Positions 4,495 to 22,679 are shown, counted from the stretch's first letter. The stretch: DNA of 27,534 nt from Candidatus Borrarchaeum weybense (GCA_019057385.1 JAHQJS010000001.1:111791-139324), one strand, 5' to 3'. The notes: generated by a model not told the origin, from the letters alone. Program-made: numbers and translations.

Positions 4495-6510
4495 CTACAA
4501 CTTTCTTCTTTGCGACTTGTCGAATATATTCTTGAAGTCTACATCTGTTCCTTTCGGATCCTCTTGCCTCTTTGGATCTCCAACCAATGTTTTGTTTATA
4601 GATAAAAGAGAGCCGATAGTTCGGGCTTTATCCTGAACAGGAAAAGAACCTTTTACTTTAGTAGTAAAATCTTTTGATGGGACATCCCCACAATTTCTCA
4701 GGGCATTTTCAACAGATCCAACTACGCCATCTGACTCATCCTTCGAACCCTTTACTACCACATCCTGAGTACTTCCATCTTCCAAAATTTCTATGTCAAT
4801 AACTTCATCCGGGTGGTCTATCTTATTCTTTTCTTTGTCATCCTCAAGATTGACCAACTCGAAATGTAGATATTCATCTCTATGACAACACCATCTCTTA
4901 TCCACAACAAGGTTTCTAAATCCTCGATATATTGAAGGATCTCGATCAAGAGATAAATGCTCAGATTTAATACCTATTCTATTCAAAATCTGTTGTGATT
5001 CTTTACTAAGAGCATCATAGTCATAGGTAGCTAATCTTATGTTAAACTTATAAACTATCTTAAGATCGGCGATAAGCTTTCTCACTGAACTTAAATTAAT
5101 CTCATCATTAGGTCGAGCTTTGATTCTCATACCAAAATCCGTTTCGATTATTGGAAGCTTTACAATCTTCATATTCCCGCCTTCCTTGAGGTCTTCAATA
5201 ACCCTATCAGACCAGCCGCTCACACAAGACATGCCTAAACCCAAGGCGTCTCCATTTCCAGAATAAGCTATATCCACATGGATATATCTAGGAACATGCC
5301 TGGGAATTCGAATAGCACTAAAATCGATATACTTAGCAAGATCAATGTTATCATTCACTCCAACCTCAATCGTATGCATCGGAACTGGATCTCTCTTAGC
5401 CGGATCATAACAATCTACTAAGTGTTTCTCGGATGGGAATAACTTCGACTTCCTAAGGTAGTTAACGGACACACCGGCGAGTCTTCTCAAATTACCCACA
5501 AGGTCTTTCTGGAATCTTTCCAGTAATTCTACGGGAACTTGAATTATATCAAATCCATCTACTACGGCCTTATCCATTCCCACTTGATCTATCTCAAGAC
5601 CTCTCTCCGTTTCTATGCAAAGAATTTTAGAAGGTGTATACAAATCGCCAAGCATGATTGGAAAAGTTTCGCCAGAAAAGTTCAGGTCAGTTTTGACTTC
5701 CCAAAGTGCTGCATCAACAATTCTGATTATTGGTGAGTTCTTCATCTTAACAATAAAAGTATTGAGGAATGATGCTTTTTCTTGCTTCGAAGCACAAAGG
5801 AAAAATCTACCTAATGTTTCTCGCTTTCCAGAATATTTAGCTATTCTAACGAACCTGGATTCAAGTCTTGAAACAGCTTCTTCATAAGCTTTAAGAACTC
5901 TAATCTTCTGCTTGTCAGATTCCATTTCCGAATCAACTTCATCCATAATTGCGAAGAGCACGTCCTCTCCTACAAAACCAAATCCTTTAGCATAGGGAGA
6001 GCCTGATTTGAATTCAAAAACTGGAAATTCAATTCGAGGGTTTGCTCCCTTTTCATTCATTATTATTCCATGGCGGTTGAACCATGGCGAAGATAACAAA
6101 TAGGATTGGAGAATGTTATATCCTTTTCCTTGACTTAAACTTTTAGTTAAGTTGAAAAATACTACCGCAATCTTGCCGCCTGCTTGCTTGCCATAGAATT
6201 CCCACGGGTCTTTAAGACATAGCACTTTGTACATGCCATAGCATATTGCTGCCACGGCTGTACGTGTTTTTCCCGTTCCTATTGCTCCAGTTAGTACTGT
6301 TAAGAATCTGGAATCATCTATAGCAATGTCAGATAGAATACTTTTCCAGTAAGGATATACAGTTTTACCATTTCCTGTAACTCTTCCTAGATATTCTGGA
6401 TCGGATAGAAACTGACCAATGGGAATAGGTTCTTCTCTATAGTCCGCATCCACATAAGCTTTTAGGATAGTATTTATCCGTTCTAATCTATTCGGCTTTC
6501 GGCCAGCCAT
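4495..6510 (-). CDS. terL: Terminase large subunit
   Basis: GAIGTGKT Walker A, AIMDEVD Walker B, RNase H-fold nuclease YIHVDIA...GDALG, and KIDHP...GSKDESDGVVG. Confidence 0.88.
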   Translation of the reverse strand: MAGRKPNRLERINTILKAYVDADYREEPIPIGQFLSDPEYLGRVTGNGKTVYPYWKSILSDIAIDDSRFLTVLTGAIGTGKTRTAVAAICYGMYKVLCLKDPWEFYGKQAGGKIAVVFFNLTKSLSQGKGYNILQSYLLSSPWFNRHGIIMNEKGANPRIEFPVFEFKSGSPYAKGFGFVGEDVLFAIMDEVDSEMESDKQKIRVLKAYEEAVSRLESRFVRIAKYSGKRETLGRFFLCASKQEKASFLNTFIVKMKNSPIIRIVDAALWEVKTDLNFSGETFPIMLGDLYTPSKILCIETERGLEIDQVGMDKAVVDGFDIIQVPVELLERFQKDLVGNLRRLAGVSVNYLRKSKLFPSEKHLVDCYDPAKRDPVPMHTIEVGVNDNIDLAKYIDFSAIRIPRHVPRYIHVDIAYSGNGDALGLGMSCVSGWSDRVIEDLKEGGNMKIVKLPIIETDFGMRIKARPNDEINLSSVRKLIADLKIVYKFNIRLATYDYDALSKESQQILNRIGIKSEHLSLDRDPSIYRGFRNLVVDKRWCCHRDEYLHFELVNLEDDKEKNKIDHPDEVIDIEILEDGSTQDVVVKGSKDESDGVVGSVENALRNCGDVPSKDFTTKVKGSFPVQDKARTIGSLLSINKTLVGDPKRQEDPKGTDVDFKNIFDKSQRRKL

Positions 6511-7234
6511 CTCCTACCTCTTCAATTCTAAGTTTTTCCAAGTTTTTTCGGATGGTTTCTCTATCCCGTGGATCCATATCCTTCATATTTTCCACTAGCT
6601 CTTGATCACTATCGGGCAATTCTTTTATCTCTTTAACCCCGATTCTCTTCCGACCTGGAGTATTCTCTCCTGGAAGAACAACCTGCTGATTGTACTGCTT
6701 AATCAAAGGAGGCTTCTCTCCACCAAATCCAAGACTTTCAGCAGCCTTAACCAACTGCTCTTCATCACGTCTCTTCTCAACTCGAATTTTTCGCTGAACT
6801 TCGAACACATCAAGATTAGGTATTCTATAAACTCTGCAAATCTTGTCGCACTTCATGCAAGTAAAGTGAGGTTCACTCTCTTGATCAATATGCATCTCAG
6901 TTGCAGCATCACAGCAAACTGACCGATAAAGAAACTTATGTCGTTCCAGTTCTTTATCGTCAATATCCCAAAATACTTCTCTCTGTTTTGTGCCCATGAA
7001 TATGTAATCTAATATCCATGTGGCGACGAAAGGATCTCTCGATTTTTGCTCCTTCTTGTACTTCTTAATAACTTTTTTAACAAAATCAACAGTGATCCTT
7101 TCGCCGACATTCTCAACTTCATTCTCATATATGCTCTGAAGTTCCTTCACTATCTCAGCTATATTACCGCGATGCTTAAAGAACAATAGCCTAGTTTTGT
7201 TTTCCCATTCTAATTCTTGAAGCGTTCCAGCCAT
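6488..7234 (-). CDS. Hypothetical protein, probable terminase small subunit
   Basis: Overlaps the terL start; N-terminal HTH-like segment; CC...CxxC cysteine cluster. Confidence 0.45.
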   Translation of the reverse strand: MAGTLQELEWENKTRLLFFKHRGNIAEIVKELQSIYENEVENVGERITVDFVKKVIKKYKKEQKSRDPFVATWILDYIFMGTKQREVFWDIDDKELERHKFLYRSVCCDAATEMHIDQESEPHFTCMKCDKICRVYRIPNLDVFEVQRKIRVEKRRDEEQLVKAAESLGFGGEKPPLIKQYNQQVVLPGENTPGRKRIGVKEIKELPDSDQELVENMKDMDPRDRETIRKNLEKLRIEEVGDGWPKAE

Positions 7235-7235
7235 T

Positions 7236-7610
7236 TTATTCTTCCTCTACAATTCCATAAACATCAGATATTCCACAAACGAAAATATAATGTACCTCTC
7301 CATCCAAACCCTCAACTTCTACTCCCCAAGGAACTAAATTATCAAAGTGCACTTTAACTCCTGGCTTCAAATTCGATGGTGGGAGGCATTGCCATTTTCC
7401 TTTGTCATTTTGATATCCTGGCCCTACAGCCAGAACAACGCCGGTACTATCCTGATGTCGCTTCCTAAACTTCTCAGGAATAAATATTAAACTCTCTTCT
7501 CCTATTTTCTCTGGAGGGGGCGTTGGAAATATAAATACTAAATCACGAAGTGGTCGATATGGAAACTCCAGAATTCCTTCTTCATTATGAAATGGAGTTC
7601 TTTGATTCAT
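7236..7610 (-). CDS. groES: GroES-like co-chaperonin
   Basis: RPLRDLV...IFIP...GVVLAVGPG...LKPG...SDVYGIVE. Confidence 0.85.
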   Translation of the reverse strand: MNQRTPFHNEEGILEFPYRPLRDLVFIFPTPPPEKIGEESLIFIPEKFRKRHQDSTGVVLAVGPGYQNDKGKWQCLPPSNLKPGVKVHFDNLVPWGVEVEGLDGEVHYIFVCGISDVYGIVEEE

Positions 7611-7836
7611 TCCTCTTCTTCCTTCCTTCTACAATATAATTTTTGATGGCGGTTCCACACAAGCAAAATCCCATAAGAGTCAAACCTGGAACTTTATTAT
7701 GCGCCGTAACTGCAGAGAACAAGAGACTATTGGCTGCATATGCAAGCCACCACTTATGACTTCGAGGTATTAAGTATAAAGTCACTATTACTAAAGCTGA
7801 AGTTACAAAATCCAATACTTTAAATAACTTATCCAT
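7585..7836 (-). CDS. Small 3-TM membrane protein, possibly a half-size PnuC/SemiSWEET-like transporter
   Basis: Three hydrophobic helices with a WW..Y..N pattern. Confidence 0.45.
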   Translation of the reverse strand: MDKLFKVLDFVTSALVIVTLYLIPRSHKWWLAYAANSLLFSAVTAHNKVPGLTLMGFCLCGTAIKNYIVEGRKKRNESKNSIS

Positions 7837-7847
7837 CTTGAATCCTC

Positions 7848-8816
7848 CTATTCAAGTAAAGCTCTTAGATCCCGAATAATTTTTTCTTTACTCGTTTCGA
7901 ATTCATCACTCCAAATGATGTAAAATTTATATCCTCTTGCTTCAAAAAACTTCCTTCTATCTTCACTATCATCTGAAGTATTATACCAAGGATTATCATC
8001 AGAGTGCCAGAACCTGGAATTATATTCTACAACCACTCTCATAGACTTGTTAATAAAATCGGGAATTTTTCCATCCACTATGTAACTTCCATCTCCTACA
8101 AACAAGAAGGATAGTTTATTTTCTTTCATAAACTCAATAACTTTTTGTTCCTCCCTATTAGGAGAAAGTTTCTGTGTTTTTCTAAGTGAGGCTATCATTT
8201 TTTCAACGTTTCGTCGATTTTTCATCGGATTATTTAATTTCATTCTCTCGCTTTTTCTTCTTCGTTGTTCAGGATCTTTGTTTGCCTCCAAAATCTTTCC
8301 TGTCATTTCTTCTCGTTTATTAGGATCAACCCATCGATCTTTGCTCGCTTTACCTATCTTCTTTCTCGTTTTTTCGCTTCCTTCACTTTTCCAAAATTTT
8401 CTTCTACCTCGCCTCAATGACTCCTTTCTCACATTGATATCACTACAAGAATACGAGGCAGTATTGCCAGGAGTCTCGGCTATTTCCACTTTTTTGAGAA
8501 TAATCTGCATATCCGAATTGCCATTATAGTCATACAATCTAAAGTGGAGATGTCTAAATACAACATAACACAAATTTTCAGCTGTGGGTTGATCCAGAAA
8601 GTAATTCAATACATTATGATCAAAATCTTGGAGAACTTCTTTTAACCATTTTTTAACTAAAGTAAAATTTATTACCCAACCCTTAGATGACAACTCATCC
8701 GATCGGAAAGTAACCCAAACCGTCCAGCGATGCCCATGCAAATTATCACACTGAGTATTTGTATTTACAAGAAAATGGCAGGCATCAAACGAATCTTGAA
8801 CTTTAATTTCAAACAT
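7848..8816 (-). CDS. queD: QueD (6-carboxy-tetrahydropterin synthase) fused to a Vsr/DUF559-like endonuclease
   Basis: FDACH, CDNLHGH, NFTLVK, DFDH, PTAEN and ETP QueD motifs; then a basic linker and PDF...VVEYNSRFWH...GYKFYIIW. Probable start is ATG 8816. Confidence 0.88.
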   Translation of the reverse strand: MFEIKVQDSFDACHFLVNTNTQCDNLHGHRWTVWVTFRSDELSSKGWVINFTLVKKWLKEVLQDFDHNVLNYFLDQPTAENLCYVVFRHLHFRLYDYNGNSDMQIILKKVEIAETPGNTASYSCSDINVRKESLRRGRRKFWKSEGSEKTRKKIGKASKDRWVDPNKREEMTGKILEANKDPEQRRRKSERMKLNNPMKNRRNVEKMIASLRKTQKLSPNREEQKVIEFMKENKLSFLFVGDGSYIVDGKIPDFINKSMRVVVEYNSRFWHSDDNPWYNTSDDSEDRRKFFEARGYKFYIIWSDEFETSKEKIIRDLRALLE

Positions 8817-9051
8817 CTTCTTTCCTTTTCTTTTTAATTCTATTCTTTTTAAGAAATCGATCAATCTTCTTTTGAGATTCCAGCAACTTGACGCTCATTG
8901 TTCCATCAGAATATGCATTCCCATGTTCTTCAGACCACATCCTGTTGGACATTCGAAGTAGTATAGCATTGGATGCGCAAAGACGCTGTAAAGTTTCTAA
9001 AACTAATTTATCCTCTTCTCTCATTCTACTTCCTCCACTTCGCAGATACAA
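8809..9051 (-). CDS. Hypothetical protein
   Basis: Packed ORF overlapping both neighbours; probable start MREEDK. Confidence 0.55.
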   Translation of the reverse strand: MYLRSGGSRMREEDKLVLETLQRLCASNAILLRMSNRMWSEEHGNAYSDGTMSVKLLESQKKIDRFLKKNRIKKKRKEDV

Positions 9052-9593
9052 GAAAGTTCTCTATATCTTTCTCCAGCGCCCATTCCACAGCCTACAATAA
9101 ATCCTTCACCTGAATATTCCCATCCAACAATATCTGGATCAGTTGCTCCATATTTACTTCTTAGTAATACTTTATCCACGAGGACAGCTGTACGTATTTG
9201 AAGAGGACAGTACCCATATATAATCGTCTCTCCCTCCTCAAGTGTTTTACCTGTTTCTACACAATCATCAATTAAGACAACGGTTCTCCCAGAGATATCT
9301 TTCCTTGACAAATCTAATGGAGTCATCAATTTTACTTCTCCTTTCGACTTCATCTCTTCCCCATAAGACTCAAGTCCTATATGACCTATAATCACGTCCA
9401 ATTCTTCTCTGATACTCGAAAAGCCATTGATGTGATTTAATGCTTTCAATATTTCATACGTCACATAAGCCCCGCCTTTTAGTATAGCTACAAGAGCTAG
9501 AGGTGATTTAATACTGTATATTTCCATTGCCATTTTCACAATAGCTTCTCGAACACCCTCATCTTCCAGAATAGGTTTGAGCTTAACATTCAT
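9021..9593 (-). CDS. hpt: Hypoxanthine-guanine phosphoribosyltransferase-like protein
   Basis: AILKGG, ESYG...GEVKL, PRPP motif VLIDDCVETGKTL, LVDK, FIVGCGM...YREL. Confidence 0.85.
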   Translation of the reverse strand: MNVKLKPILEDEGVREAIVKMAMEIYSIKSPLALVAILKGGAYVTYEILKALNHINGFSSIREELDVIIGHIGLESYGEEMKSKGEVKLMTPLDLSRKDISGRTVVLIDDCVETGKTLEEGETIIYGYCPLQIRTAVLVDKVLLRSKYGATDPDIVGWEYSGEGFIVGCGMGAGERYRELSCICEVEEVE

Positions 9594-10224
9594 CCTCGAT
9601 ATCCCTTTCTATTCTTTCAACTCTACTTATTCCTCTTTCTTTTACAACTACAAAAGATGCGTCTGCTATTTTTGACAACTCGCCCTCCTGCGTGATTATA
9701 ATAAACTGCAAGTCTAGTGTTTCGGAAAGATATCGTATCATTTCTTTTACCGATTCAATATTTTGCAATCCATGCAAGCATCTAAAAGGTTCATCAAAAA
9801 CTAAAGTCGCTCTTGTTCTTTCATATTGAATAGCCCACAAAACTACTCGTAGTGCGAAAGAAACTACGTCCGCCTGACCCCCGCTAAGTTCGTCATCCTT
9901 CGGAGAAAATCTTTCGCCATCAATATCAATAAATAAATGAACTTCAGGTTGGTTATGAGAAATTTCACTTTCTATTACAAAAGAATGATTATCACCAAAT
10001 ACAAATCTTAAAGCCTGAGTAACTAAAGTTTCAACTACATCCTCAAATTCTTGCTGAGCTAAGATTCCTACTATATTCATAACTTCAAGAGCTTCTTCTA
10101 AATCGCCCAAATAAATCAGGCAATCTTTAATCCTATCCTCTAGCTCCTGAATATTTTCCCTGTGAATTTCTATCGAAGCTCTTTTATCACTCAGGAAGTC
10201 TTCATACTTTTTTAGATCCATCAT
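9583..10224 (-). CDS. sbcC: SbcC/Rad50 C-terminal half (ABC signature and Walker B)
   Basis: LSGGQADVVSFALR signature, LVFDEPF Walker B/D-loop, FIIITQ; no Walker A. Confidence 0.85.
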   Translation of the reverse strand: MMDLKKYEDFLSDKRASIEIHRENIQELEDRIKDCLIYLGDLEEALEVMNIVGILAQQEFEDVVETLVTQALRFVFGDNHSFVIESEISHNQPEVHLFIDIDGERFSPKDDELSGGQADVVSFALRVVLWAIQYERTRATLVFDEPFRCLHGLQNIESVKEMIRYLSETLDLQFIIITQEGELSKIADASFVVVKERGISRVERIERDIEDEC

Positions 10225-10387
10225 TCAACTCATTAAAATGCTTAGCAAACTTTTCGGCCAGTGATTCTGGATTCCCCATGTTAGATCTATCCTTATGCTC
10301 CTTGGAACGATAATGATCTTTCAAATCTTTCCAAGAGGCGAACTCTCTTTCACACGTATGGCAATAAAATAGCTTACCGCTCATCAT
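10202..10387 (-). CDS. Small C2H2 (JAZ/matrin-type) zinc finger protein
   Basis: FYCHTCEREFASWKDLKDHYRSKEH. Confidence 0.7.
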   Translation of the reverse strand: MMSGKLFYCHTCEREFASWKDLKDHYRSKEHKDRSNMGNPESLAEKFAKHFNELNDGSKKV

Positions 10388-10653
10388 TCCTCCGGAGACA
10401 AAAGATCAATTCTCGTTCCTACTTCTAATCCTTCAGGAGGAAAAAGCAATGGACGGCCTCCGCTGTAAGCTACCTCATTTTCTCCAGAGCCATCAAAGGT
10501 TACCCAAAACTTTTTCTGGCTAAACCTATCTTTAGTTAGAACGGCGTAACTAATTAGTCTCCTACTTTTCTTTGGGGGTTGCTTGGTCGATGATGTCGCC
10601 CATTTCACGATCCAGTTTTTTAAGAAGTTCTTCATCTTGAACAAGATCTCCAC
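10384..10653 (-). CDS. Hypothetical protein (true start probably downstream of 10653)
   Basis: Packed ORF; stop overlaps the zinc finger start. Confidence 0.5.
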   Translation of the reverse strand: MEILFKMKNFLKNWIVKWATSSTKQPPKKSRRLISYAVLTKDRFSQKKFWVTFDGSGENEVAYSGGRPLLFPPEGLEVGTRIDLLSPEE

Positions 10654-10819
10654 ACAACTTTTCTATTTCTTTATCTGCAGCGCTAAGTGACTCTACTCCA
10701 AAATCATCCTTGAGTTGCTTCATTATTTGTTCTCGCCGGCCATCCTTCTTAGCTTTTTCTCTCTGAAGCTGCTCGATCTTCTTACTCTTATCCTTAACAT
10801 TATCTATGACATCAGCCAT
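10562..10819 (-). CDS. Small coiled-coil protein
   Basis: Heptad-rich charged helix directly downstream of sbcD. Confidence 0.7.
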   Translation of the reverse strand: MADVIDNVKDKSKKIEQLQREKAKKDGRREQIMKQLKDDFGVESLSAADKEIEKLCGDLVQDEELLKKLDREMGDIIDQATPKEK

Positions 10820-11753
10820 TTTTCTTCCTTACTTTCTCAAGCTTTTCATCGATTATATCTTTAACTCTCTGGTTCGATTTCCTCTCTTCCAAAACTTTTA
10901 CCAGGATATGTTTCCATCCAGATAATCTGTCTCCACTTTCTTTTATTCTCTCAACCAATTCCACAAGAGCGGAGTTATCTTTCTTCTCAACCTTCTTAGT
11001 TAGATCAAATACTTCCTCAATAGGTTTCGCATTAAGTTCGATAATTTTTACTTCATCAGTATTCGTATCAAATACAACAACCGCTGGCTTATGCTCTAAA
11101 TCAAATTTTCCCGTTGTCTTTCTAACTATTGCTCCAGGATTTATAATCGTTCTACCGTTCCAAGTTTCAGTAAATCGATAATGATAATCCCCACAACATA
11201 TCAGATTATATCCGGGATTCTTCCTAAGAAATTGTCTTGGGCCAGGAAGCTCTTGACTTGGCCATAACGGCCTATCTCCAATCATTCTATGAGTTACAAG
11301 AATATTATAACTTTCTTCACTTGGTTCGGGTATGTCCTCACCAAAGGAAGCTCCGTAAAAAGCATGTGTTGAATCACCACCCTCTCCAGCATAAACCGGT
11401 TTATCATTAAGTATTTTAACAACTCTTGCTGCTTGAAGGAGAGATAGTGGACTATTAGGCAAAGTGAACTTGCTATGCCCTGATATATCATGCTGCCCGA
11501 AAACGCAGAATATTCTCTGTTCTCCACTCTTTCCATAACAGTATAGAAGTTCGATAATTGCTACCACGATTTTGTTAGCTACTGTTGGAGCGTCAAAAAA
11601 ATCGCCCACTTGTATGATACAGTCACATTTATGTTTATCAAATATACTTAAAGCTTGACTTAACTTTCCGTACAAAGTTTCCCAGTAGTTATCCAGCCTC
11701 TTCTCTGGACCTCTATTCGTAAGTTGTAAATCTCCAAGTATACCTAATTTCAT
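10812..11753 (-). CDS. sbcD: SbcD/Mre11-like metallophosphoesterase nuclease
   Basis: GDLQ, GDFFD, GQHD, VTH, GDYH and NPG motifs. Confidence 0.85.
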   Translation of the reverse strand: MKLGILGDLQLTNRGPEKRLDNYWETLYGKLSQALSIFDKHKCDCIIQVGDFFDAPTVANKIVVAIIELLYCYGKSGEQRIFCVFGQHDISGHSKFTLPNSPLSLLQAARVVKILNDKPVYAGEGGDSTHAFYGASFGEDIPEPSEESYNILVTHRMIGDRPLWPSQELPGPRQFLRKNPGYNLICCGDYHYRFTETWNGRTIINPGAIVRKTTGKFDLEHKPAVVVFDTNTDEVKIIELNAKPIEEVFDLTKKVEKKDNSALVELVERIKESGDRLSGWKHILVKVLEERKSNQRVKDIIDEKLEKVRKKNG

Positions 11754-12358
11754 TTCTTCTTTCCAGATATTTCGGGATACAATATTTCAGGAACAAAATA
11801 GTAGTCATGATGCAAAGAATCTATTAGCAGTATATCAAACAATTCGATAATGAGAGTGTAAATCTTCTTATCCATCAAGTCGGTACTGCTATCCCTCTTC
11901 TTCTTTGCAGCCTCTAGATCCACAAATAATTGTTTTGACTTATTGGAAGTATTTGGCCAGTAAAACAGGTTGTCCGCTTCAAACAAAAAAAGTACCTCAG
12001 GAAGAGTTAAACTTGCTCTTTTCGCAAAGCTGTACATCGCGACGAGGTCTTCAGGCGTTAGATATTCTTTTGGATTGCTCCATACCTTAGATTGAAGAGG
12101 ATGCTCCCTACCGATGTGGGTAAGTTTATGTGCAGGAATTGGAAATCGCGCTGGGCATCCTTCCACCTGAAATACCTCTACTAAATAAGTTGTTTGCCCT
12201 ACAGAAATTTGGACGGTGCGAATATTCACAATGCGATAATCACCTTCCGCTAGCAAATTGAAAGAAGAGGAGTCGGGAGGATGATAATCCCTATCAGGAA
12301 CAATGTGATACCATTCTCCTAGCTTAATAATCATACCCGTAATCATAGCCTCCATCAC
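11750..12358 (-). CDS. Hypothetical protein
   Basis: 202-aa ORF; stop overlaps the sbcD start. Confidence 0.6.
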   Translation of the reverse strand: MMEAMITGMIIKLGEWYHIVPDRDYHPPDSSSFNLLAEGDYRIVNIRTVQISVGQTTYLVEVFQVEGCPARFPIPAHKLTHIGREHPLQSKVWSNPKEYLTPEDLVAMYSFAKRASLTLPEVLFLFEADNLFYWPNTSNKSKQLFVDLEAAKKKRDSSTDLMDKKIYTLIIELFDILLIDSLHHDYYFVPEILYPEISGKKK

Positions 12359-12599
12359 TCTTGTACAAACCTAAACTCATGGACAAGCTCTCGATAAGAC
12401 CTTTGCACCTGCTATCACCTTCGATAACTACTTCTCCATCAGTAACGCTCATCTGCATAGGTCGGTCAAGAACGAGCTCATATTGTTTTAGAACATTTCC
12501 TTCTGGATCCCGAACAATAACTTTTCCCATATGAGGAAGCGATGGACCACATCCACTTAAGAAAATAACACAAATAAGAATTAAAATTATAGTTTTCAT
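12324..12599 (-). CDS. Putative lipoprotein
   Basis: MKTIILILICVIFLSG-C signal peptide with lipobox. Confidence 0.7.
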   Translation of the reverse strand: MKTIILILICVIFLSGCGPSLPHMGKVIVRDPEGNVLKQYELVLDRPMQMSVTDGEVVIEGDSRCKGLIESLSMSLGLYKSDGGYDYGYDY

Positions 12600-12603
12600 T
12601 TGA

Positions 12604-12786
12604 CTAAGGGACAATAAAAATGACTATGTTAGCAATTGAATATAACAAACCTAAAGCAAATGGCTTAAAGCTTGAACAAGAAAAATTGAATCCTGCTGAA
12701 TGCCAATCGATAGCATTAACAACGGTTAATCCGATCATTGATGCGAGCATCACCATCTGGAAGATAAACTTGAATTTGGTTAACAT
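12604..12786 (-). CDS. Small 2-TM membrane protein
   Basis: Two hydrophobic segments; AGGAG RBS. Confidence 0.65.
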   Translation of the reverse strand: MLTKFKFIFQMVMLASMIGLTVVNAIDWHSAGFNFSCSSFKPFALGLLYSIANIVIFIVP

Positions 12787-12795
12787 AATAGTCTC

Positions 12796-12969
12796 CTATT
12801 TCAAATCCCACTGTAAGTTAATATTGAATCCTCTATACGCCGCGTCTTCTTCTCTATATCTTGACTGGGCAAAACCAATGCCTAATCTATCTGGAGTCAA
12901 AAGGTCTGCGGTGCATCCCGACGTGAATAAAATGACGGCGAGGCATAAAAGCAGAATGAAAGTTTTCAT
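12796..12969 (-). CDS. Small putative lipoprotein, 57 aa (MKTFILLLCLAVILFTSGCTADLLTPDRLGIGFAQSRYREEDAAYRGFNINLQWDLK)
   Basis: Manually translated; AGGAG RBS, ATGA overlap with the sbcC-N stop, lipobox TSG-C. Confidence 0.75.
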   Translation of the reverse strand: MKTFILLLCLAVILFTSGCTADLLTPDRLGIGFAQSRYREEDAAYRGFNINLQWDLK

Positions 12970-14078
12970 ACTCCTTCTCCTAATAATGTTTTCTTTGTAT
13001 TTTCAGTTAGTTTTGATCCACAATGAGGACATGAAGTTAATTGACTTTCAAGCTTCTTCTTCTCCTCCATTTCTTCTGATATCAACTTTCCAAGGTTTTC
13101 AATTCCATCATTAATATCTCGAATATCTTCAGACAGCTCCATGAGTGTTTCTACCTTTTTAGTTGTATCATTATACCTTTCAATCACCTCTTTACTTTTA
13201 GGAAGGATGCTAAGGTCATCTGGAAGATGTATTTTAGTTGCCTCTGCAACCTTTAACTCACTCACCAGATTTCTAAGTCTTTCCAGCTTTTCAGAAGTTT
13301 TAGTAATAGATTCAACATGTTGATTTGCCTGCTCAAGTGTTCCATCTATATTTTCTGGGATGACTATTTGATGGGCATCTAAATCTCTTATGGCATCAAC
13401 AATGTTCTTGAGTTTAGATAAAGTGCTTCTCGTTTCATCAATTCTTCGAATAACTTCTTTAGCCTTAGTTATCCTCTTTTCCAACCCATCAAGATCTATC
13501 TTAATCAAAGTTTTTAACTTAGTTCGGTTTGTTTCCAATTCTCCTTGGTCACGAACAACATCAGCCTTCTCCGAACGAATATCACTAGATAATAGTTGCC
13601 TTACCTCATCTATCTCATCCAATTTTGTTATAGCTCGGATGTAGGTAGCAATTTGTCCTGGAGGCGCATATACAAGAAAATAAGGATCTCTTTGCTTCTG
13701 GATATTTATATCGGACAAATTGAGGATTTTAGTTACTTCATCTGGAGGCGTAGTTCCAGCTGCGATGGTAGCGAACTTTTTTCCATCCTTAGTCAAAACA
13801 TAATTGTTTACATCTTCGCCAGATATCTTTCCACGATTGCGAGATATTCCATACTCTCCATCACTTTCGGTTACACTAAGAGATACTTTACATCCTTTTT
13901 GTCCTCTTCTAATATAGCCGGTTCCAAGAGGTCGATTATCCTTAACCAACTTTAAAGCTTGCAGAATGTTCGTTTTCCCCTGACCTGAGTCTCCAGTTAT
14001 AACATTTATCCTTTTTGAAAACTCAAGTTTAGTGTTCTCGTGGGACTTGCAATCTTCTATGATAAGATCTTTAAACAT
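12966..14078 (-). CDS. sbcC: SbcC/Rad50 N-terminal half (Walker A, Q-loop, coiled coil, zinc hook)
   Basis: ITGDSGQGKTNIL, NIQKQRDPYFL, long coiled coil, CPHCG near the C-terminus. Confidence 0.87.
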   Translation of the reverse strand: MFKDLIIEDCKSHENTKLEFSKRINVITGDSGQGKTNILQALKLVKDNRPLGTGYIRRGQKGCKVSLSVTESDGEYGISRNRGKISGEDVNNYVLTKDGKKFATIAAGTTPPDEVTKILNLSDINIQKQRDPYFLVYAPPGQIATYIRAITKLDEIDEVRQLLSSDIRSEKADVVRDQGELETNRTKLKTLIKIDLDGLEKRITKAKEVIRRIDETRSTLSKLKNIVDAIRDLDAHQIVIPENIDGTLEQANQHVESITKTSEKLERLRNLVSELKVAEATKIHLPDDLSILPKSKEVIERYNDTTKKVETLMELSEDIRDINDGIENLGKLISEEMEEKKKLESQLTSCPHCGSKLTENTKKTLLGEGV

Positions 14079-14287
14079 TACTTAATTCCATTTTGATTAT
14101 GGACTTGATTAAATCCCTTTAAGATGTATCGCATAGTAGCGATATCAGACTGGGCTTTCTTTATCTTCTTGATTCCTTGAAGTCCCCATGACACTTGCTT
14201 TGCACTTTCATACAACTTGAGTAATTCATCTCCGGATAGTGCTTCAAGTTCCTTTACCGAATAAACCTTTTCAACATCATATATCAT
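14078..14287 (-). CDS. Hypothetical protein
   Basis: GAGG RBS; TAATG overlap with sbcC-N. Confidence 0.6.
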   Translation of the reverse strand: MIYDVEKVYSVKELEALSGDELLKLYESAKQVSWGLQGIKKIKKAQSDIATMRYILKGFNQVHNQNGIK

Positions 14288-14363
14288 AGTTTTCCTCTTT
14301 AGTTACTTGTTTTCCAAACCTGTCCACTTTTAAGTTATCCCAATTATGCAAAAATGTTTTCAT
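14277..14363 (-). CDS. Possible 28-aa peptide (MKTFLHNWDNLKVDRFGKQVTKEENYDI)
   Basis: Manually translated; GGAG upstream; overlaps the next gene start. Confidence 0.35.
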   Translation of the reverse strand: MKTFLHNWDNLKVDRFGKQVTKEENYDI

Positions 14364-14437
14364 TGTAGACAATCTCCAACTGCCGAGTCCTCCCAAACTT
14401 TTCCAAGTAAAATAAGTTGAAACTCTAGGAAGAGAGG

Positions 14438-14620
14438 TTAGGATGAAGTGGATGGTGATGATAACTGCACTGGGAGGAGATTTAATATCCTAATCAAAAG
14501 GCATAACCTGCACTTTGGTACAGGACAATTTTTGATAACAAAAGCGTTATCTGGTCTTTCCTCCATATGATCCACCGTTTGGCACTTCAAAATCTTTTCC
14601 TTTTCTTCTTGCGTAAACAT
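14438..14620 (-). CDS. Cys-containing hypothetical protein, possibly truncated
   Basis: ATG 1 nt after the RuvC-like stop; CPVPKCRLC. Confidence 0.45.
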   Translation of the reverse strand: MFTQEEKEKILKCQTVDHMEERPDNAFVIKNCPVPKCRLCLLIRILNLLPVQLSSPSTSS

Positions 14621-14621
14621 G

Positions 14622-15341
14622 TTAAGATGCGTCCTTACAAATAAATGGTCTATCCAAAATGTTGACTGGATACGCTTTAGTAGTTCGAAGGAATATTCTT
14701 CTATGACCTTCGGATAACTTATTTAACATAACTTCTCCACTTCTAAGTTTTAACTCTTTATACAACATTAGAGCTAAAAAGAAGGCATCAGCAAGGTCAG
14801 TAGCTGGACCATCATACTCTTCAATTTTCTCAGACATTCCTTTTTTCTTTATCATCTTCTTCTTTATCAATCCCTCAGGAAAGAAATCTGGAGCAACTTT
14901 AACAATATCCTTTTTCATGCATTTTCCATTATTCAAAGCAAAAAGCTTAACCGTCAAAGGATCATGAATTCGAATATTGCCTCCTCCAGTAAATATCAAA
15001 CGCTTTAGATATCCAGTTAGTTCAGCAATCTGACAAATTGAAGTAGTTTGAGATGAATAAGAATATCCTTCAATAGAAAAATATTCTGGTTGTGGTGGAA
15101 AAGTACATATCCTATTTTCAAATCCCACTAATGCTTCGGCATATTCAGACATCCTTCTTAAGCGAAATACATCTTTAGATTCATCTTTCTTTATCTTACT
15201 TAAAAGATGTGAATGCTCTGAATCAACTTCGGCTATCTTCTTTGTAGTTGTAAGGTAAAGATAGTCTATTACCATTCCATCATCATTGAGCACAACAACT
15301 CCTCCATGGTCGAGTGATATATCTAATCCAAAAATTTTCAT
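14622..15341 (-). CDS. RuvC-like Holliday junction resolvase
   Basis: IFGLDISL, FSIEGYSY, TVKLFA...K, DLADAFFLA. Confidence 0.8.
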   Translation of the reverse strand: MKIFGLDISLDHGGVVVLNDDGMVIDYLYLTTTKKIAEVDSEHSHLLSKIKKDESKDVFRLRRMSEYAEALVGFENRICTFPPQPEYFSIEGYSYSSQTTSICQIAELTGYLKRLIFTGGGNIRIHDPLTVKLFALNNGKCMKKDIVKVAPDFFPEGLIKKKMIKKKGMSEKIEEYDGPATDLADAFFLALMLYKELKLRSGEVMLNKLSEGHRRIFLRTTKAYPVNILDRPFICKDAS

Positions 15342-15343
15342 TC

Positions 15344-15628
15344 CTACATTCTTTCTGGTTGAATTGCCTTAACAAAAGTTACTTCAAGCTCCACTATTCC
15401 ACATTCATCAACACAACTTCGTTGTTCTTTGATTGCGTCAAGTGAGTAGTAAATTCTATTACCAGCGGAATTGTAAGGAACTTCATATTTCCAATCTACC
15501 AAACACATATAAGCTGTTATAGTATCTTTCTCGGATTGGATAGCCTTGTACCATCTATAGAACAACCATACTATCGGGCTTAATACAATCACAAATGCAA
15601 TGGCCAACCATATCCACATTGTTCCCAT
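15344..15628 (-). CDS. Hypothetical protein with an N-terminal TM helix
   Basis: Hydrophobic N-terminus; CVDECGIVE. Confidence 0.6.
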   Translation of the reverse strand: MGTMWIWLAIAFVIVLSPIVWLFYRWYKAIQSEKDTITAYMCLVDWKYEVPYNSAGNRIYYSLDAIKEQRSCVDECGIVELEVTFVKAIQPERM

Positions 15629-15649
15629 ATTTATCTTTCCTATTATTCC

Positions 15650-15705
15650 GCCCCTACTCCGGCCATTGGGGCTCTAATATTTGCCGTTATGTACCGGACG
15701 CAAAT
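15650..15705 (-). ncRNA. Candidate structured intergenic RNA (two hairpins with complementary loops)
   Basis: GC-rich stems AUUUGCGU/ACG(G)CAAAU and GCCCC/GGGGC; loops contain CCGGU and GCCGG. Confidence 0.4.
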
Positions 15706-15731
15706 TCAACAGAACATCTGACTACCAATCC

Positions 15732-16772
15732 TCAAACATATGTCCGTTTCTTTCTCTTTTCGGTTTGATAAACCTCCTGCCATTTCTCCCAAACTGCTTG
15801 CCTCAAATCCTCCTCAAGGTTTTCATCCTCAACTTTTTGAACCCAGTAACCAAATGCGTGCTCTTCTCCGAAAATTTCAATCTTCGTTGTTTTCTTCTTA
15901 GCTTCTTTAGGACCGTTTTGCGCTTCACTCAAGAAGTAAATGTTGGATCCGATGTCATCAAGAGCATGATCAAACAAAACTTTAAATCTTCCTTCTCTAA
16001 ATGGCGGGCCTACTTTATTTTTCTTGACTATAAACTTAGTCCAAATTCCAATAACTTTGTCAGCTTTGTTAACAACCTTACCATCACTCTTAAGATGAAC
16101 TCGAACCGAAGGATAGAAAAGCGGCGATTTTCCACCAGATACTGTTTCGCCGCCCCAAGGTGAATTCATGTCAGTTCTTGTTTGATCCATAAAAACTAAG
16201 GTGGTGTTACTTTCTGAAAGAGCTTTTATATATTTTCTAAATCCCAGAGAAAGTTGCTTAGCTCGAGGAGCTCTGGCCTGGCTATCCGACATTTTCTTCT
16301 CAAGTTCAACTTGAGCCGGAAGTGCGGCAACAGTATCAGCTACCATTACCTTTGGTTTCGTATCATACGTTCCTTTCTTTTGATCCTTGTAAATAGCGCC
16401 TGCAATCCAGTCATCAAACATTTCTTCCAAAGTGTTGGGATAAGATAGAATACTTTTATTCGGTTCATACCCAAACAATTTGGCGAACCTCTCATCAAGA
16501 GTGTGCTCCACATCAGCATAGTGAGCAATTCTTCCAGATCGTATTGCATATCCGAGTATAAGAGCTGCGAGCACTGATTTGCATGTACTATTCCCACCAA
16601 AGAACGTGATTATCCTACCTATCGGTATGCCTCCTGGAAATAAATTCGCGATAGCCAAATCAAGAACAGTGCATCCAGTTTGGCACCATTCAGTAACTTC
16701 AGCAAGGCTTATCAACTCGCTAGCTTTTTCAGAAGTTTTTTCTACTTCACTTTTAGCTTTTTTTCCAGCCAT
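15732..16772 (-). CDS. recA: RecA/UvsX recombinase
   Basis: TGCTVLDLAI, GGIPIGRI, DVEHTLD, VADTVAAL, GGKSPLFYPSVR, KNKVGPPFR. Confidence 0.93.
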   Translation of the reverse strand: MAGKKAKSEVEKTSEKASELISLAEVTEWCQTGCTVLDLAIANLFPGGIPIGRIITFFGGNSTCKSVLAALILGYAIRSGRIAHYADVEHTLDERFAKLFGYEPNKSILSYPNTLEEMFDDWIAGAIYKDQKKGTYDTKPKVMVADTVAALPAQVELEKKMSDSQARAPRAKQLSLGFRKYIKALSESNTTLVFMDQTRTDMNSPWGGETVSGGKSPLFYPSVRVHLKSDGKVVNKADKVIGIWTKFIVKKNKVGPPFREGRFKVLFDHALDDIGSNIYFLSEAQNGPKEAKKKTTKIEIFGEEHAFGYWVQKVEDENLEEDLRQAVWEKWQEVYQTEKRKKRTYV

Positions 16773-16775
16773 ATT

Positions 16776-17303
16776 TTATATCTCCGATAATTCTTCCTCA
16801 TGGTCAACTTCATCTTGAGCTTTCTTATCCCGCATAGCCACTATTGCTTCTTCATTCTCTTGCCAATCCTCATTACTAATCGGCCTATCAGAATAGTAGG
16901 ATCGCACAAACAACCTAACAAGATTGCTAATAGATGACGACCTTTTTTCTACAGAGGATAAAAGCGTGGATGCTTCATTCGCCAGCTTATCAGCATCAAT
17001 ATAGTTTCGGACGGCCTCTTGATACTCTTCATTTGTAGTAATTACCGAGTTGATTGCTCCTTCGGTAGGCTTCTCTTTTAGTCCGTAACTCTTAGGATCT
17101 TTCCTAATCTTAAGAGATAAATCAGCTTTAACAAATTCTATGCGTTCCTTCGCAGTTTTGGAGCGTGCTTTGACATCAGCTACCCATATGCCAACTTCAT
17201 CATACAACACAGGCTGCTGGCAGTTCTCCACCTCCAAGCTGAACTGGTCTATTGGAAGTTTCTCCCTAAAATTCTCCAGCTCTTCTCTATCTTCATTAGT
17301 CAT
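16776..17303 (-). CDS. UvsY-like recombination mediator
   Basis: LPIDQFSLEVE..QQPVLY N-terminus, helical; located between SSB and RecA. Confidence 0.6.
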   Translation of the reverse strand: MTNEDREELENFREKLPIDQFSLEVENCQQPVLYDEVGIWVADVKARSKTAKERIEFVKADLSLKIRKDPKSYGLKEKPTEGAINSVITTNEEYQEAVRNYIDADKLANEASTLLSSVEKRSSSISNLVRLFVRSYYSDRPISNEDWQENEEAIVAMRDKKAQDEVDHEEELSEI

Positions 17304-18333
17304 CTCTTTGCTCGTTCCTTTGTCTTCGCTTCTCTTCTATCTCCTCCATTTTCTTTTTAACCGAGTCCCGCTGGTCAGAGTTGTCGTCCCGACTTCCTCG
17401 ATCCCTGTCTCGATCCCGGTCTCTATTGTCGTCCCGACTTTCGCGGCTTCCTCGATCCCTGTCTCTATCTCGATCCCTGTCTCTATCTCGATCCCTGTCT
17501 CTATCTCGGTCGTCCCGACTTTCGCGGCTTCCTCGATCCCTGTCTCTATCTCGATCCCTGTCTCTATCTCGATCCCTGTCTCTATCTCGGTCGTCCCGAC
17601 TTTCGCGGCTTCCTCGATCCTTATCTCTGTCCTTGTCTCTATCATCTTTGTCTTTTGAAGCAGGTGTACCTTTGACAATTCTCTCAACATCGTCATAAGA
17701 AGGAATAAGCAGAACATCATCAAACGGAGGCAAATCTTCATGCCATTCTCTTGGAATACTACTAATCTTTCCAAGGGAGTAGTCACTATAAGGATTTCCT
17801 TTTTTATCCTTACGAACGAATTCCACATCACAGCCATTTACTGGATCGGATACATCGATTATCTCCTTGGTGCGCTTATCCTTCGATGCTCCGCAAATAC
17901 CACTATAAATCGCGGGTGGGCAGTTAAACCACTTTGCTCCTTCGTCCTCAGTATCTCTTGAGGTAGTATCAACCACAAAAAGTAGAATTCTCAAACCGGG
18001 CAAGAGCGGCTTGATCTGATCATTGGATACATTCTGCTTTCGTAGTTCTGCTATGTAGTCACAAACGGCACAGGGTTTATTAAACGTTTCCTGCATGCAG
18101 AGATAAGTACTTCCATTCGCTCCAACATTTGTATGCTGCCATATTTTCTTTCCAAAGCAGCCTTTCTTATTTGGAGTAACAACTCGAATGAAATTATCTC
18201 CTTTCTTAGGTTTGTACTGATTGATACCCAACCTATCTAACACATCCCTGTCGACAAAGTAATACTGGGCGCCTCCTCCACTACTTATATTTGCACCTTC
18301 GTCAATCTCTTTTGCTCGACTTTCTTCTACCAT
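17296..18333 (-). CDS. T4 gp32-like single-stranded DNA-binding protein with an Arg/Asp repeat tail
   Basis: GDNFIRVV, H...YLC...PCAVC zinc site, DVSDPVNGCD; probable start is ATG 18333 after GGAG. Confidence 0.78.
   Translation of the reverse strand: MVEESRAKEIDEGANISSGGGAQYYFVDRDVLDRLGINQYKPKKGDNFIRVVTPNKKGCFGKKIWQHTNVGANGSTYLCMQETFNKPCAVCDYIAELRKQNVSNDQIKPLLPGLRILLFVVDTTSRDTEDEGAKWFNCPPAIYSGICGASKDKRTKEIIDVSDPVNGCDVEFVRKDKKGNPYSDYSLGKISSIPREWHEDLPPFDDVLLIPSYDDVERIVKGTPASKDKDDRDKDRDKDRGSRESRDDRDRDRDRDRDRDRDRDRDRGSRESRDDRDRDRDRDRDRDRDRDRDRGSRESRDDNRDRDRDRDRGSRDDNSDQRDSVKKKMEEIEEKRRQRNEQRDD
17386..17640. repeat. Nested tandem repeat: 81-bp unit (two full copies at 17431-17592 plus partials), each containing three copies of 18-bp CTCGATCCCTGTCTCTAT
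   Basis: Directly visible; encodes GSRESRD(DR)n. Confidence 0.95.
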
Positions 18334-20000: not shown

Positions 20001-22679
20001 TCAAGAGGCTGCGACCATGAAATTATCCAACTCAATTCTTTCATCCTTCAGGCACACATACTTTTTATCTTCTCTAATTGATATTGGTTTCATCTCGTAC
20101 CAATTCCAACCTATCTCCCATTCAACACTTAAAGGAATACCTCTTTGCCACTCGTACCTCTCGGAACACATTATTTCCGTAACTATATTAATCAGCTCAT
20201 CCACTTCTTCTATTATCGCATCAAAAGCCATACTATCATGAACTTCCATATTCGCGAATGATTTTAATTTTCTTTTCCTAAACTCCGCTCCAACTCTAAT
20301 CAAAGCATCAAGCAAGAGATGGAAAGACACTCCTTGGATCAGATTGTTGTATAACTGATTAATGGATAATGGACCTATTCTTCTCCATCCATTAACTGCT
20401 TCAACATAACCATCCTGCATGTAATCACGAATCATTTTATTTTGCCATTCCTTGACATAATGATACTCCTCCCAGAATTCCTTCTGAACTTGCTTTACGT
20501 GATCAGGAGAAAGGTCAGGGAAAGATCTAACAATGCTGGTATCCTTTGAGCCGTAAAAACTTGGAAAAACAAATCCATTTTTTATTCCATATCTTTGATC
20601 TTTCGTTACGTCCTCAACGGGCTTTCGATACATTTTAGATGTCCATCTCCAGTGAGTATCAAAAGGATTATGTCCACCTTCTGGATGTTCCTCATCCCAC
20701 TTCTTTCCCTCTCGGATTTGCCTGATAAGTTCTGGATCTCCAGAAAACATAGCTATACCCTTAACCTCCATGCCGCTATAGTCAACCTCAGGCATAATTC
20801 TGCCAATAGATGGAACAATACATTTTCTAAATATAAGAAGCTCTTTATCATGCTTAAACACGTTTTGGATATTTGGACTATCTGCAGAAGATCTATAGGT
20901 ATCGGCCATGTTCAAATTATATGATGGATGAACATATCCATATTTATCCATGACATTTCTATAATTGGTAGCTCGTTCTGTTAAACTACAGGTCTTCCTA
21001 AATCTAAGAAGCGCATTGATCAGAGTCCTTACTTCTTCATTATCTGTAACCTCCATAATTATTGGAAGAGCATTCTTATCAGTACACAACTTTTTATTCT
21101 TTATCTTCGGTAGCTTCCTATTTTTCGTTGGATCAATCTTGTAAGTATTCTTTAAAATGGCAGCCACTTGAGGCGATGAATCTGGATTAAACTCCTTTTC
21201 ATTCTCTTCTTCATACTGCCTAACTCCAGATAAAGCTTTCATCTCAGATATTCTAAGCTCTCTCTCGGATAGATACTTATCCTCAAGTTCTTTAAGAACA
21301 TCCAAATCTATTCTATTTCCCCTCTCCCTCATGCTCACCAATTCCTTCGCTCCTTCAAGATAGAACTTATAGAATTCTCCAACACCTGGATTTGCCTCAA
21401 AGAATGCTTTCTGATCATAGTAAGACATTAATGTGTATCTACCATCGAAGCAGTTATAATTGCAAACCTTATCCAATGGTTCAGAAGATATGTTCTTAAC
21501 ATCAACCATTCCCTTGTAGCTATGCCCAGCCAGCATAAGCGCTTGAAATCCCAAGCCGGTTGTATTCGAATTATTATTTATCACGTGAGCGGCGATCATG
21601 GTATCATGAATAATGTTATCCGCTGGTTGATCCAAAAACATCCTACCCCATATTTCTTCCATGTTGATATTCTGTACTACCTTTGGAACTCTACTCCTTA
21701 AAAATTCTCTCCAAGCGTCTAGAATTACTTCTTGTTCCCGACGACTAAAAATAGCGGTGCCATTATCATTTGATAACTTTAGAGGAATAACTCCCCCATA
21801 GTCCACATGATTAGCTGCTGATATAGTTAGTAAATCCGCAGTTTCCAACCAAGGGAATAATTCTGTAGCCTCATAGTCATAGGCCGTTGGTTTGTTTTCT
21901 CGGATTAGATTTTTAATAAACTCAACTGCTTCATCAACATTAGTTAAATGCCTGTTGCCTTCTCTAGATAAAGGTCGGGGCAGAGGTTGATCAAGATATG
22001 AAATTATGTTAGCCAAATCATATCCTAGAATGATTTCGTCATCTGGATACTTGTCCTTCTTCTGACTTCGATATCTAAAAAACGCGGGATGATAAGAACA
22101 TCCTACCCAGCAATTAAACTCATGAAATGGTACAACTTTTCCATGCATCTGCCCGGCTGTGAAACCTTTCATATTCAAAGTTTTTAGAATAGCGTTTATC
22201 GCAGGTCCGCCCAGGCATATAATTAACTTAGGTTGAGTTTCTTCAATATCTTTTAATATTCTTTCACTGCAGCATTTATACTGTTCTTTTGTAGGCTCTT
22301 TATCCTCTCCTCTATCATTCTGTCCTGGATAACATTGAACAATATTCTGTCTCCAGCAGTCTGCGTCCATATCTATTCCAACATACTCAAACATCCTCTT
22401 CAAAAGTCTTCCGGATGGACCGACTAAAGGTTTACCTTTCCTATCCTCTACTCTTCCTGGGCATTGTCCTATGATAAGAATTTTCTTCCTTCCATCTCCG
22501 AACCTTTCCATCTTGGGGGTTCTGCACCTTCTATGGAGCCCACAAGTATCACAGTCGTAAATCTTCTTAGCCTTCGGTCGCCCACCACAAGCGGGTCGTT
22601 TCTTTCTCTCAAACTTCTCAGGATGCTCCTTCTGAAAAATCTCCCACTTGCTCATGAAGAAAGCTGGCTGTTTTCCCAT
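20001..22679 (-). CDS. polA: Family A DNA polymerase with N-terminal family-4 UDG-like domain and 3'-5' exonuclease
   Basis: UDG: CxxC...GQCPG..ED..GKPLVGPSG...YHPA. Exonuclease: DYE, HDTM, YNCFD. Polymerase: PNIQN, DYSGME, R...K....F...YG, VHDS. Confidence 0.93.
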   Translation of the reverse strand: MGKQPAFFMSKWEIFQKEHPEKFERKKRPACGGRPKAKKIYDCDTCGLHRRCRTPKMERFGDGRKKILIIGQCPGRVEDRKGKPLVGPSGRLLKRMFEYVGIDMDADCWRQNIVQCYPGQNDRGEDKEPTKEQYKCCSERILKDIEETQPKLIICLGGPAINAILKTLNMKGFTAGQMHGKVVPFHEFNCWVGCSYHPAFFRYRSQKKDKYPDDEIILGYDLANIISYLDQPLPRPLSREGNRHLTNVDEAVEFIKNLIRENKPTAYDYEATELFPWLETADLLTISAANHVDYGGVIPLKLSNDNGTAIFSRREQEVILDAWREFLRSRVPKVVQNINMEEIWGRMFLDQPADNIIHDTMIAAHVINNNSNTTGLGFQALMLAGHSYKGMVDVKNISSEPLDKVCNYNCFDGRYTLMSYYDQKAFFEANPGVGEFYKFYLEGAKELVSMRERGNRIDLDVLKELEDKYLSERELRISEMKALSGVRQYEEENEKEFNPDSSPQVAAILKNTYKIDPTKNRKLPKIKNKKLCTDKNALPIIMEVTDNEEVRTLINALLRFRKTCSLTERATNYRNVMDKYGYVHPSYNLNMADTYRSSADSPNIQNVFKHDKELLIFRKCIVPSIGRIMPEVDYSGMEVKGIAMFSGDPELIRQIREGKKWDEEHPEGGHNPFDTHWRWTSKMYRKPVEDVTKDQRYGIKNGFVFPSFYGSKDTSIVRSFPDLSPDHVKQVQKEFWEEYHYVKEWQNKMIRDYMQDGYVEAVNGWRRIGPLSINQLYNNLIQGVSFHLLLDALIRVGAEFRKRKLKSFANMEVHDSMAFDAIIEEVDELINIVTEIMCSERYEWQRGIPLSVEWEIGWNWYEMKPISIREDKKYVCLKDERIELDNFMVAAS

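Follow-up and report, generated by a model that had tools for sequence, protein, structure and literature searches.

Why does a phage encode a purine PRTase beside queD? The window considered here, a stretch of 27,534 nucleotides taken whole, is exactly one 27.5-kb piece of a 179-kb scaffold (G000:C1) that consists of nine pieces and eight 100-N joins. An HPRT-like gene lies on its minus strand at 9021-9593, and the next gene downstream encodes QueD. DpdA is regarded as the signature of 7-deazaguanine DNA modification systems (Cui et al. 2023). The helper steps of the DpdA pathway are not mapped, and a dedicated, virus-only PRTase points to a step that has gone unrecognised.

Two features of this gene call for explanation. 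One is the company it keeps; the other is its active site, in which two residues conserved in human HGPRT are replaced. What base would such an enzyme take? An earlier note on this DNA tentatively suggested a 7-deazaguanine base, reasoning that a 6-oxopurine site altered at position 7 is what a 7-deazaguanine PRTase might look like.

The surroundings of the gene are those of a T4-like phage. The window carries replication and recombination genes of this type (a gp32-like SSB, RecA/UvsX, a clamp loader and a beta-clamp-like protein) together with a UDG-PolA fusion and a split Rad50 with an SbcD-like phosphoesterase. The fusion (20001-22679, minus strand) is a single protein of 892 aa in which a domain of the uracil-DNA glycosylase superfamily precedes a family A DNA polymerase. 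Several scaffold genes point to a bacterial host, namely a bacterial-type beta clamp, a sigma-70 region 4 protein, Cpn10 and PolA; the scaffold is probably mis-binned.

A gene of the HPRT fold

The frame at 9021-9593 is open, begins with ATG and encodes 190 amino acids. There is an overlap of 11 nt between its start codon and the end of the gene upstream (9583-10224, minus strand; PF02463), the C-terminal half of a split SbcC/Rad50 ATPase that serves us as a marker of synteny and is not a member of the pathway. On the other side, 157 nt separate it from queD, and a search of this gap for a terminator-like site found none. An 80-aa ORF in the interval (8809-9051) has no similarity to the small gene that occupies the same place in L012, a related 160-kb ENA contig.

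The protein matches the Pfam family PF00156 (Pribosyltran) with 49.4 bits, against a cut-off of 26.3, and the NCBIfam family TIGR01203 (HGPRTase) with 84.7 bits, which is under the equivalog cut-off of 150; a PHROGs search matched no family. With phmmer it aligns to human HGPRT (1bzy and others) at an E-value of about 9e-14. In the PRPP loop, loop III, VVLIDDCVETGKT pairs with VLIVEDIIDTGKT, so that the human N7 aspartate, Asp137, is replaced by Glu113. In loop IV, GFIVGCGMGAGERYREL pairs with KFVVGYALDYNEYFRDL, and Asp193 is replaced by Gly172. The same alignment equates F165 with Phe186, R178 with Arg199 and K141 with Lys165. Loops I and II are retained as LKGG (K39-G40) and S76-Y77, respectively; D109-D110 and T114-G115-K116-T117 of loop III match the human residues and are conserved in the family, as are the O6-binding lysine K141 and the stacking phenylalanine F165. 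What the earlier note had picked out is confirmed: a glutamate at the position of Asp137, the loss of the conserved Asp193, the retention of the O6-binding lysine, and the nearness of queD.

An AlphaFold2 model made from 33 clade sequences is confident (mean pLDDT 93.3, pTM 0.89) and has the type I PRT fold with a hood domain. When it is compared with the PDB by Foldseek, the 50 best matches are all HPRT or HGPRT, with TM scores of 0.73-0.83. Given this model and 54 relatives among metagenome proteins, the frame is a true gene and not a chance ORF. The enzyme also looks catalytically competent: K39-G40, S76-Y77, D109-D110, T114-G115-x-T117, K141, F165 and R178 are all kept, most active-site residues are still invariant in clade members 31-63% identical to it, and the model and its HPRT matches agree.

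The two substituted positions

What do the replaced residues do in better known enzymes? The loop-3 aspartate hydrogen-bonds N7 of the purine and is the proposed mediator of N7 protonation; the equivalent of Asp193 is the third residue of a loop-4 triad, where it reads the C2 substituent and abuts the second phosphate (PPi) site (PMC10357585). The triad is Phe/Leu/Asp in HGPRTs and Tyr/Phe/Glu in the xanthine-preferring HGXPRTs (PMC10357585). From this role of the aspartate it follows that Gly172 alters the C2/N3/PPi edge of the site and not position 7, and the argument that the site is altered specifically at position 7 falls, since Asp193 faces the C2 substituent and the PPi side.

The other replacement, that of the N7 aspartate by glutamate, is as conservative as had been supposed. 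In the HPRT of T. cruzi, Canyuk and colleagues are reported to have found in 2001 that only Glu and Gln can functionally stand in for this aspartate; Glu, Gln, Asn and Ala mutants of it are in the PDB (1i14, 1i0i, 1i0l and 1i13). If that is so, the enzymes of the clade still read N7 of a true purine, because a hydrogen-bonding Asp, Glu or Gln stands at this position throughout. Glutamate is also longer and bulkier than aspartate: it would crowd a 7-cyano or 7-carboxy group, not make room for it. The change from Asp193 to Gly, for its part, may retune the C2/N3 and Mg-PPi side, for example so as to exclude abundant deazaguanine bases or to alter the kinetics. Escape from inhibition by (p)ppGpp was considered as the cause of Gly172 and set aside, since the study of that inhibition places regulation in loop II and oligomerisation.

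How widespread are the two residues? The close family consists of 54 metagenome proteins that are 53-65% identical to the PRTase; all 54 have the motifs DDCxE and GF[LI]VG[CAV]GMGxGE, with Glu113 fixed. Below this family, an exhaustive HMMER search of 1.84 billion representatives found a gradient of identity from 50% to about 30%. The remoter members of the clade retain the glycine-rich loop FLVGCGMGxGExYR, and at the position of Asp137 they have mostly Asp and in a few cases Gln. The clade alignment shows no variation at G168, G170, G172 or E175. We sampled 151 relatives. Among the 62 that have Gly172, 41 carry Asp, 18 Glu and 3 Gln at position 113; among the 88 that have Asp172, the corresponding numbers are 77, 10 and 1. 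On a tree of the 151, itself poorly resolved, Gly and Asp are clustered, with 9 changes of state compared with 48 after shuffling. A scan of 185,579 bacterial and archaeal genomes, one for each species, with a 13-row alignment yielded no relative with the pattern F[LI]VGCG[ML]GxG, and none of 50,697 GenBank phage records contains a close homologue of the PRTase.

As judged from these sequences, Glu113 characterises the nearest family but is also seen in ordinary HPRT relatives, and Gly172, in GxGMGxGE, is a real signature of a deep, virus-only clade. As far as we can see, the Gly172 clade is found only in viral and metagenomic sequence and is known from uncultured viruses. The earlier note had made its case depend on the E/G variant being uncommon in ordinary HPRTs. 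For the glycine this is so, cellular HPRTs being without it in the genomes scanned. The glutamate at the N7-contacting position is not special: it is outnumbered by Asp within the Gly172 clade itself and is found in 10 of the 88 relatives that keep Asp193.

Deazaguanine genes on the scaffold and in related viruses

The window contains three genes that belong with 7-deazaguanine, all on the minus strand. QueD (6-carboxytetrahydropterin synthase; 7848-8864) matches PF01242 with 99.5 bits over residues 19-139, TIGR03367 with 87 bits, and PHROG 2389. Its C-terminus (residues 237-336) resembles Vsr/DUF559/HNH-like endonucleases through weak matches to PF18741 and PF04480. This endonuclease domain is in frame with QueD here, and relatives such as L012 have a stand-alone QueD of 136 aa; outside the window the scaffold has two further copies of the domain (C1:173934-174419 and C1:140548-140937), which fits a homing endonuclease. 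At 24777-25790 is a QueC-like PP-loop enzyme (PF06508, 56.1 bits, residues 40-187; SGGIDS and CGKCQCC in the translation) with a C-terminal HAD-type phosphatase-like domain, indicated by a weak match to PF25109 (HAD_PNKP). On the same strand, upstream of QueC-HAD and DpdA, 25801-26914 encodes an N6/N4 DNA methylase directly followed by a DUF488-N3a ('active N3 subclade') protein.

The third gene, at 23756-24742, encodes a DpdA-type DNA guanine transglycosylase of 328 aa. It has no Pfam hits and was recognised by tblastn and by alignment of its motifs. It has 284 homologues, one of which, from a Vibrio phage, bears the annotation tRNA ribosyltransferase. By tblastn it matches sequences in 170 phage records of GenBank. 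The DpdA of Pseudomonas phage Iggy, a characterised enzyme, is one of these matches (31% identity, 2e-25), and some others are annotated as queuine tRNA-ribosyltransferase. In an alignment of 23 homologues, DSG (D54-G56), HGFG (193-196) and DSxxW (212-216) are invariant. Neither PF01702 (TGT) nor PF20314 (DUF6610) has a match on the phage scaffold or among 23 viral records related to it, and these blanks suggested a phage without DpdA; the tblastn match of 23756-24742 rules this out. PF01702 is not a valid detector of DpdA here, and because it misses the DpdA of the window and those of the related records, surveys based on it will undercount such systems. A profile built from the DpdA homologues picks up the window type readily. 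A single-sequence DpdA3 query (CGPG_00065 of Cellulophaga phage phiST) found nothing on the phage scaffold and matched in G021 alone. A second DpdA-like sequence, partial or split, lies outside the window on another piece of the scaffold (G000:C1:23601-24243) and is 35% identical to residues 179-323 of the window DpdA; a separate fragment covers profile positions 95-152.

With DpdA on the same contig, the ordinary route of base exchange is present in this phage. A PRTase route would be necessary if the base had no other way in, and a DpdA homologue within the same 27.5 kb provides one.

The other genes of the pathway lie elsewhere on the scaffold. FolE, on another piece, scores 209.6 bits and is the only FolE match in the whole bin; a QueE-like radical-SAM gene, also on another piece, is a weak match at 30.5 bits. 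FolE, QueD, QueE and QueC are thus all present, the QueE-like gene weakly, and they are spread over pieces joined across runs of N; the que genes are dispersed over the scaffold and do not form one operon. A Qng1-like gene is found elsewhere on the scaffold and in only two of the 23 related records, and we give it little weight as an obligate partner. No MazG-type dGTP exclusion gene was found on the phage scaffold.

Is the neighbourhood of the PRTase more than an accident of one genome? Searched with the clade alignment, IMG/VR yielded 23 loci, mostly in fragmentary records. QueD is present in 21 of them, in at least four gene arrangements. The DpdA profile found DpdA in 10 of the 23, among them the sole complete genome, and an eleventh has DpdA3. 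The largest contigs on which HPRT-like and DpdA homologues occur have the same sizes (156,001, 121,306, 101,646 and 39,275 bp), so the two probably lie on the same unscaffolded contigs.

The commonest order is SMC_C (the Rad50 C-half), PRTase, QueD, Cpn10, found in 17 related viral loci and in L012, with identities of the PRTase down to 29%. This order belongs to one T4-like lineage and counts as one observation, much of the adjacency being shared ancestry. L012 differs from the window in other ways: two of its genes, one after the Rad50 N-half (6589-8745, 718 aa) and one in the terminase position (13895-18226, 1443 aa), contain intein domains that their window counterparts lack, and after QueD it has a DUF1937 protein (11219-11866), with no counterpart at that position in the window. 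We take DUF1937 to be a nucleoside 2-deoxyribosyltransferase-like family.

Other arrangements are quite different. L034 (IMGVR_UViG_3300042318_001133, 6095-14191) is a DpdA3-type operon in which the PRTase directly follows FolE: dUTPase, two unknown genes, QueD, QueE, FolE and PRTase, then a dCTP-deaminase/dUTPase-fold gene, an HDAC-like amidohydrolase, an unknown gene, an AAA_18 kinase-like gene and DpdA3. A kinase stands beside DpdA3 in phage phiST also (CGPG_00066 and CGPG_00065); CGPG_00065 to 00068 and 00070 of that phage include kinase-like and MazG genes and no PRTase. In L035/L036 a distance of 6 kb separates the PRTase from FolE, an NT5C nucleotidase and QueC; the nucleotidase of L035, a locus unrelated to the window, is a separate gene between FolE and QueC, to be compared with the QueC-HAD fusion of the window. 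In L030, a complete genome of 82 kb, QueC and DpdA are 5-9 kb from the PRTase. The fragments L032 and L033 contain no que gene. The PRTases of L032, L034 and L035 retain Asp193, and those of L030 and L033 have Gly. Because L030, L034 and L035/L036 depart from the order of the 17 loci, the link between the PRTase and deazaguanine genes is recurrent and not only inherited, and it is strong. The E/G combination is confined to que-encoding phages, a clustering that had been suggested as a check on the first proposal. From its gene neighbours, the PRTase almost certainly belongs functionally to the deazaguanine module.

Possible roles and comparison with known systems

What, then, might the PRTase do? 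We observe its fold, the conservation of its residues for PRPP, O6 and stacking, the occurrence of DpdA, QueD and QueC on one contig, and the recurrent association; its substrate, the direction of flux and its benefit we infer. We tentatively propose, at a probability of about 0.45, that it is a 6-oxopurine PRTase, most likely for guanine, and a fixed accessory of DpdA-type 7-deazaguanine DNA modification that recycles the guanine displaced by DpdA. GTP is the precursor of the 7-deazaguanine pathway, and guanine is a competitor in transglycosylase reactions. FolE, QueD, QueE and QueC would turn GTP into a 7-deazaguanine base, which DpdA would insert into phage DNA, releasing one free guanine with each exchange. 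The PRTase would join this guanine to PRPP to give GMP, and cellular kinases would return it to GTP. Such recycling would at once remove a product that competes for DpdA and regenerate the precursor of the pathway.

Since DpdA is present, salvage of guanine is the most economical role. It also fits the retained N7-reading residue, the absence of the gene from small DpdA phages, and its place with the early, GTP-consuming enzymes, beside QueD in the 17 loci and L012 and after FolE in L034. Yet the 170 GenBank DpdA phages do without the PRTase, so it is not required for DpdA function. Nor does the recycling of guanine explain the clade-wide change of Asp193 to Gly in GxGMGxGE: it is not obvious why an ordinary guanine PRTase should give up a Mg-PPi/C2-edge residue. 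The nucleotide-acting domains near QueC (the HAD fusion here, NT5C in L035), like the two dUTPase-fold genes and the kinase that flank the PRTase of L034, fit an arm of the pathway at the level of nucleotides at least as well.

Such an arm is what the original proposal would amount to: the enzyme would act like TubE, which joins CDG to PRPP, and use CDG, preQ0, ADG or a similar base, and the nucleotides would be tailored and released (by QueC-HAD and the Qng1-like protein) or reduced and incorporated by polymerase, alongside DpdA. We consider this unlikely. In its favour are the tight and recurrent association with deazaguanine genes, an active-site variant confined to viruses, and the precedent of TubE and ToyH: transfer of CDG to PRPP is proven for TubE, and the same reaction with preQ0 is predicted for ToyH (PMC6112128). 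The phosphatase fused to QueC, the nucleotidase beside QueC in L035, and the place of the L034 PRTase between FolE and a dCTP-deaminase/dUTPase-fold gene, with kinase and DpdA3 downstream, point the same way, and the ADG nucleoside has been reported in cells infected by CP220 (PMC10516641). But with DpdA present the route is unneeded. The active site argues against it as well: Glu would crowd a 7-substituent and the clade mostly has Asp there, Gly172 lies at the C2/N3/PPi edge and not at C7, and a 7-deazapurine cannot use the N7-protonation chemistry that the loop-3 Asp serves (PMC10357585). The scaffold also encodes a Qng1-like nucleotide glycosylase, which would reverse the reaction, although it is rare in relatives (2/23), and TubE is grouped by its authors with another type of PRT, that of Sulfolobus 4Z1O, a chain missing from the best 60 PDB hits of our protein. 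The earlier note was therefore right about both substitutions and about the link to que genes; its argument from position 7 did not survive, and the presence of DpdA and the affiliation of TubE count against its conclusion. It is doubtful, too, that the Gly172 clade has converged on TubE-like chemistry, which would give infected cells 7-deazaguanine ribonucleotides and a second, nucleotide-level arm beside DpdA. Were it so, tailoring could take place on the nucleotide (QueC-HAD) before release of the base for DpdA, or the nucleotides could feed a pre-replicative incorporation by the phage polymerase.

Two other explanations seem to us improbable. The PRTase might be a generic purine-salvage auxiliary of a T4-like lineage, its adjacency to queD reflecting inherited gene order and not shared function. 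The SMC_C, PRTase, QueD and Cpn10 genes are indeed inherited as a unit among replication and recombination genes, and the que genes of the scaffold are scattered. Against this stand the three other arrangements (L030, L034 and L035/L036), which also include deazaguanine genes; moreover, the presence of QueD in 21 of 23 records and the lack of close homologues in 50,697 GenBank phages tie the PRTase to the pathway and not to phage nucleotide metabolism in general. Alternatively, and with as little likelihood, specificity may have shifted at the C2/N3 edge, toward xanthine or another 2-substituted 6-oxo base, or the handling of Mg-PPi may be altered. Gly172 does replace the third residue of the triad that sets C2 preference (PMC10357585), and the four residues G168, G170, G172 and E175 are invariant across the clade. 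The other positions of the triad, Phe165 and Met/Leu171, remain HGPRT-like, however. Nor do we know of any intermediate of 7-deazaguanine synthesis with a changed C2 group.

The recycling of guanine, which remains our preferred reading, would be a closed guanine-to-GTP loop that pulls base exchange forward; the alternative step would be a nucleotide-level branch, and the substrate specificities expected from the two are opposite. To enzymologists the Gly172 clade offers an experiment of nature, HPRTs that do without an aspartate, Asp193, conserved in the others.

How does the enzyme compare with known systems? Like the classical HPRTs and HGPRTs (human 1BZY, T. cruzi 1TC2, Bacillus anthracis 3O7M, E. 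coli 1G9S) it has a type I core and a hood, the model reaching Foldseek TM scores of 0.78-0.83 with these enzymes, and it shares with them the Lys-Gly of loop I, the Ser-Tyr of loop II, the acidic pair, TGxT, the O6 lysine, the stacking phenylalanine and the PPi-binding arginine. It differs from them in overall sequence (about 20-30% identity; the TIGR01203 score of 84.7 against 150), in the change of Asp193 to Gly within the invariant GxGMGxGE loop, and in those of Tyr190 to Cys and Asp137 to Glu.

TubE and ToyH, of the tubercidin and toyocamycin pathways of Streptomyces, are likewise type I purine PRTases encoded beside homologues of FolE, QueD and QueE, and TubE is a PRTase able to accept a 7-deazaguanine base, CDG (PMC6112128). 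By its authors' alignment, however, TubE belongs with the Sulfolobus solfataricus 4Z1O-type PRTs, a branch other than that of the classical HPRTs; a 4Z1O chain is absent from the 60 best phmmer matches of our protein in the PDB. For tailoring, their clusters have GMP-reductase-like enzymes and enzymes of the Nudix or HAD type; they lack DpdA, which is present here.

A further comparison is with the DpdA systems of phages 9g, CAjan and Iggy (Hutinet 2019, Cui 2023). As in these, DpdA, QueD and a QueC-like enzyme are encoded together, on the window, with FolE and a QueE-like gene elsewhere on the scaffold; in this uncultured phage, 7-deazaguanine modification of the DNA is predicted from the genes. 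In the literature we found no description of an HPRT-type PRTase in a phage deazaguanine system. The locus described here differs from those systems in having one, and in carrying a HAD domain on QueC and an endonuclease on QueD.
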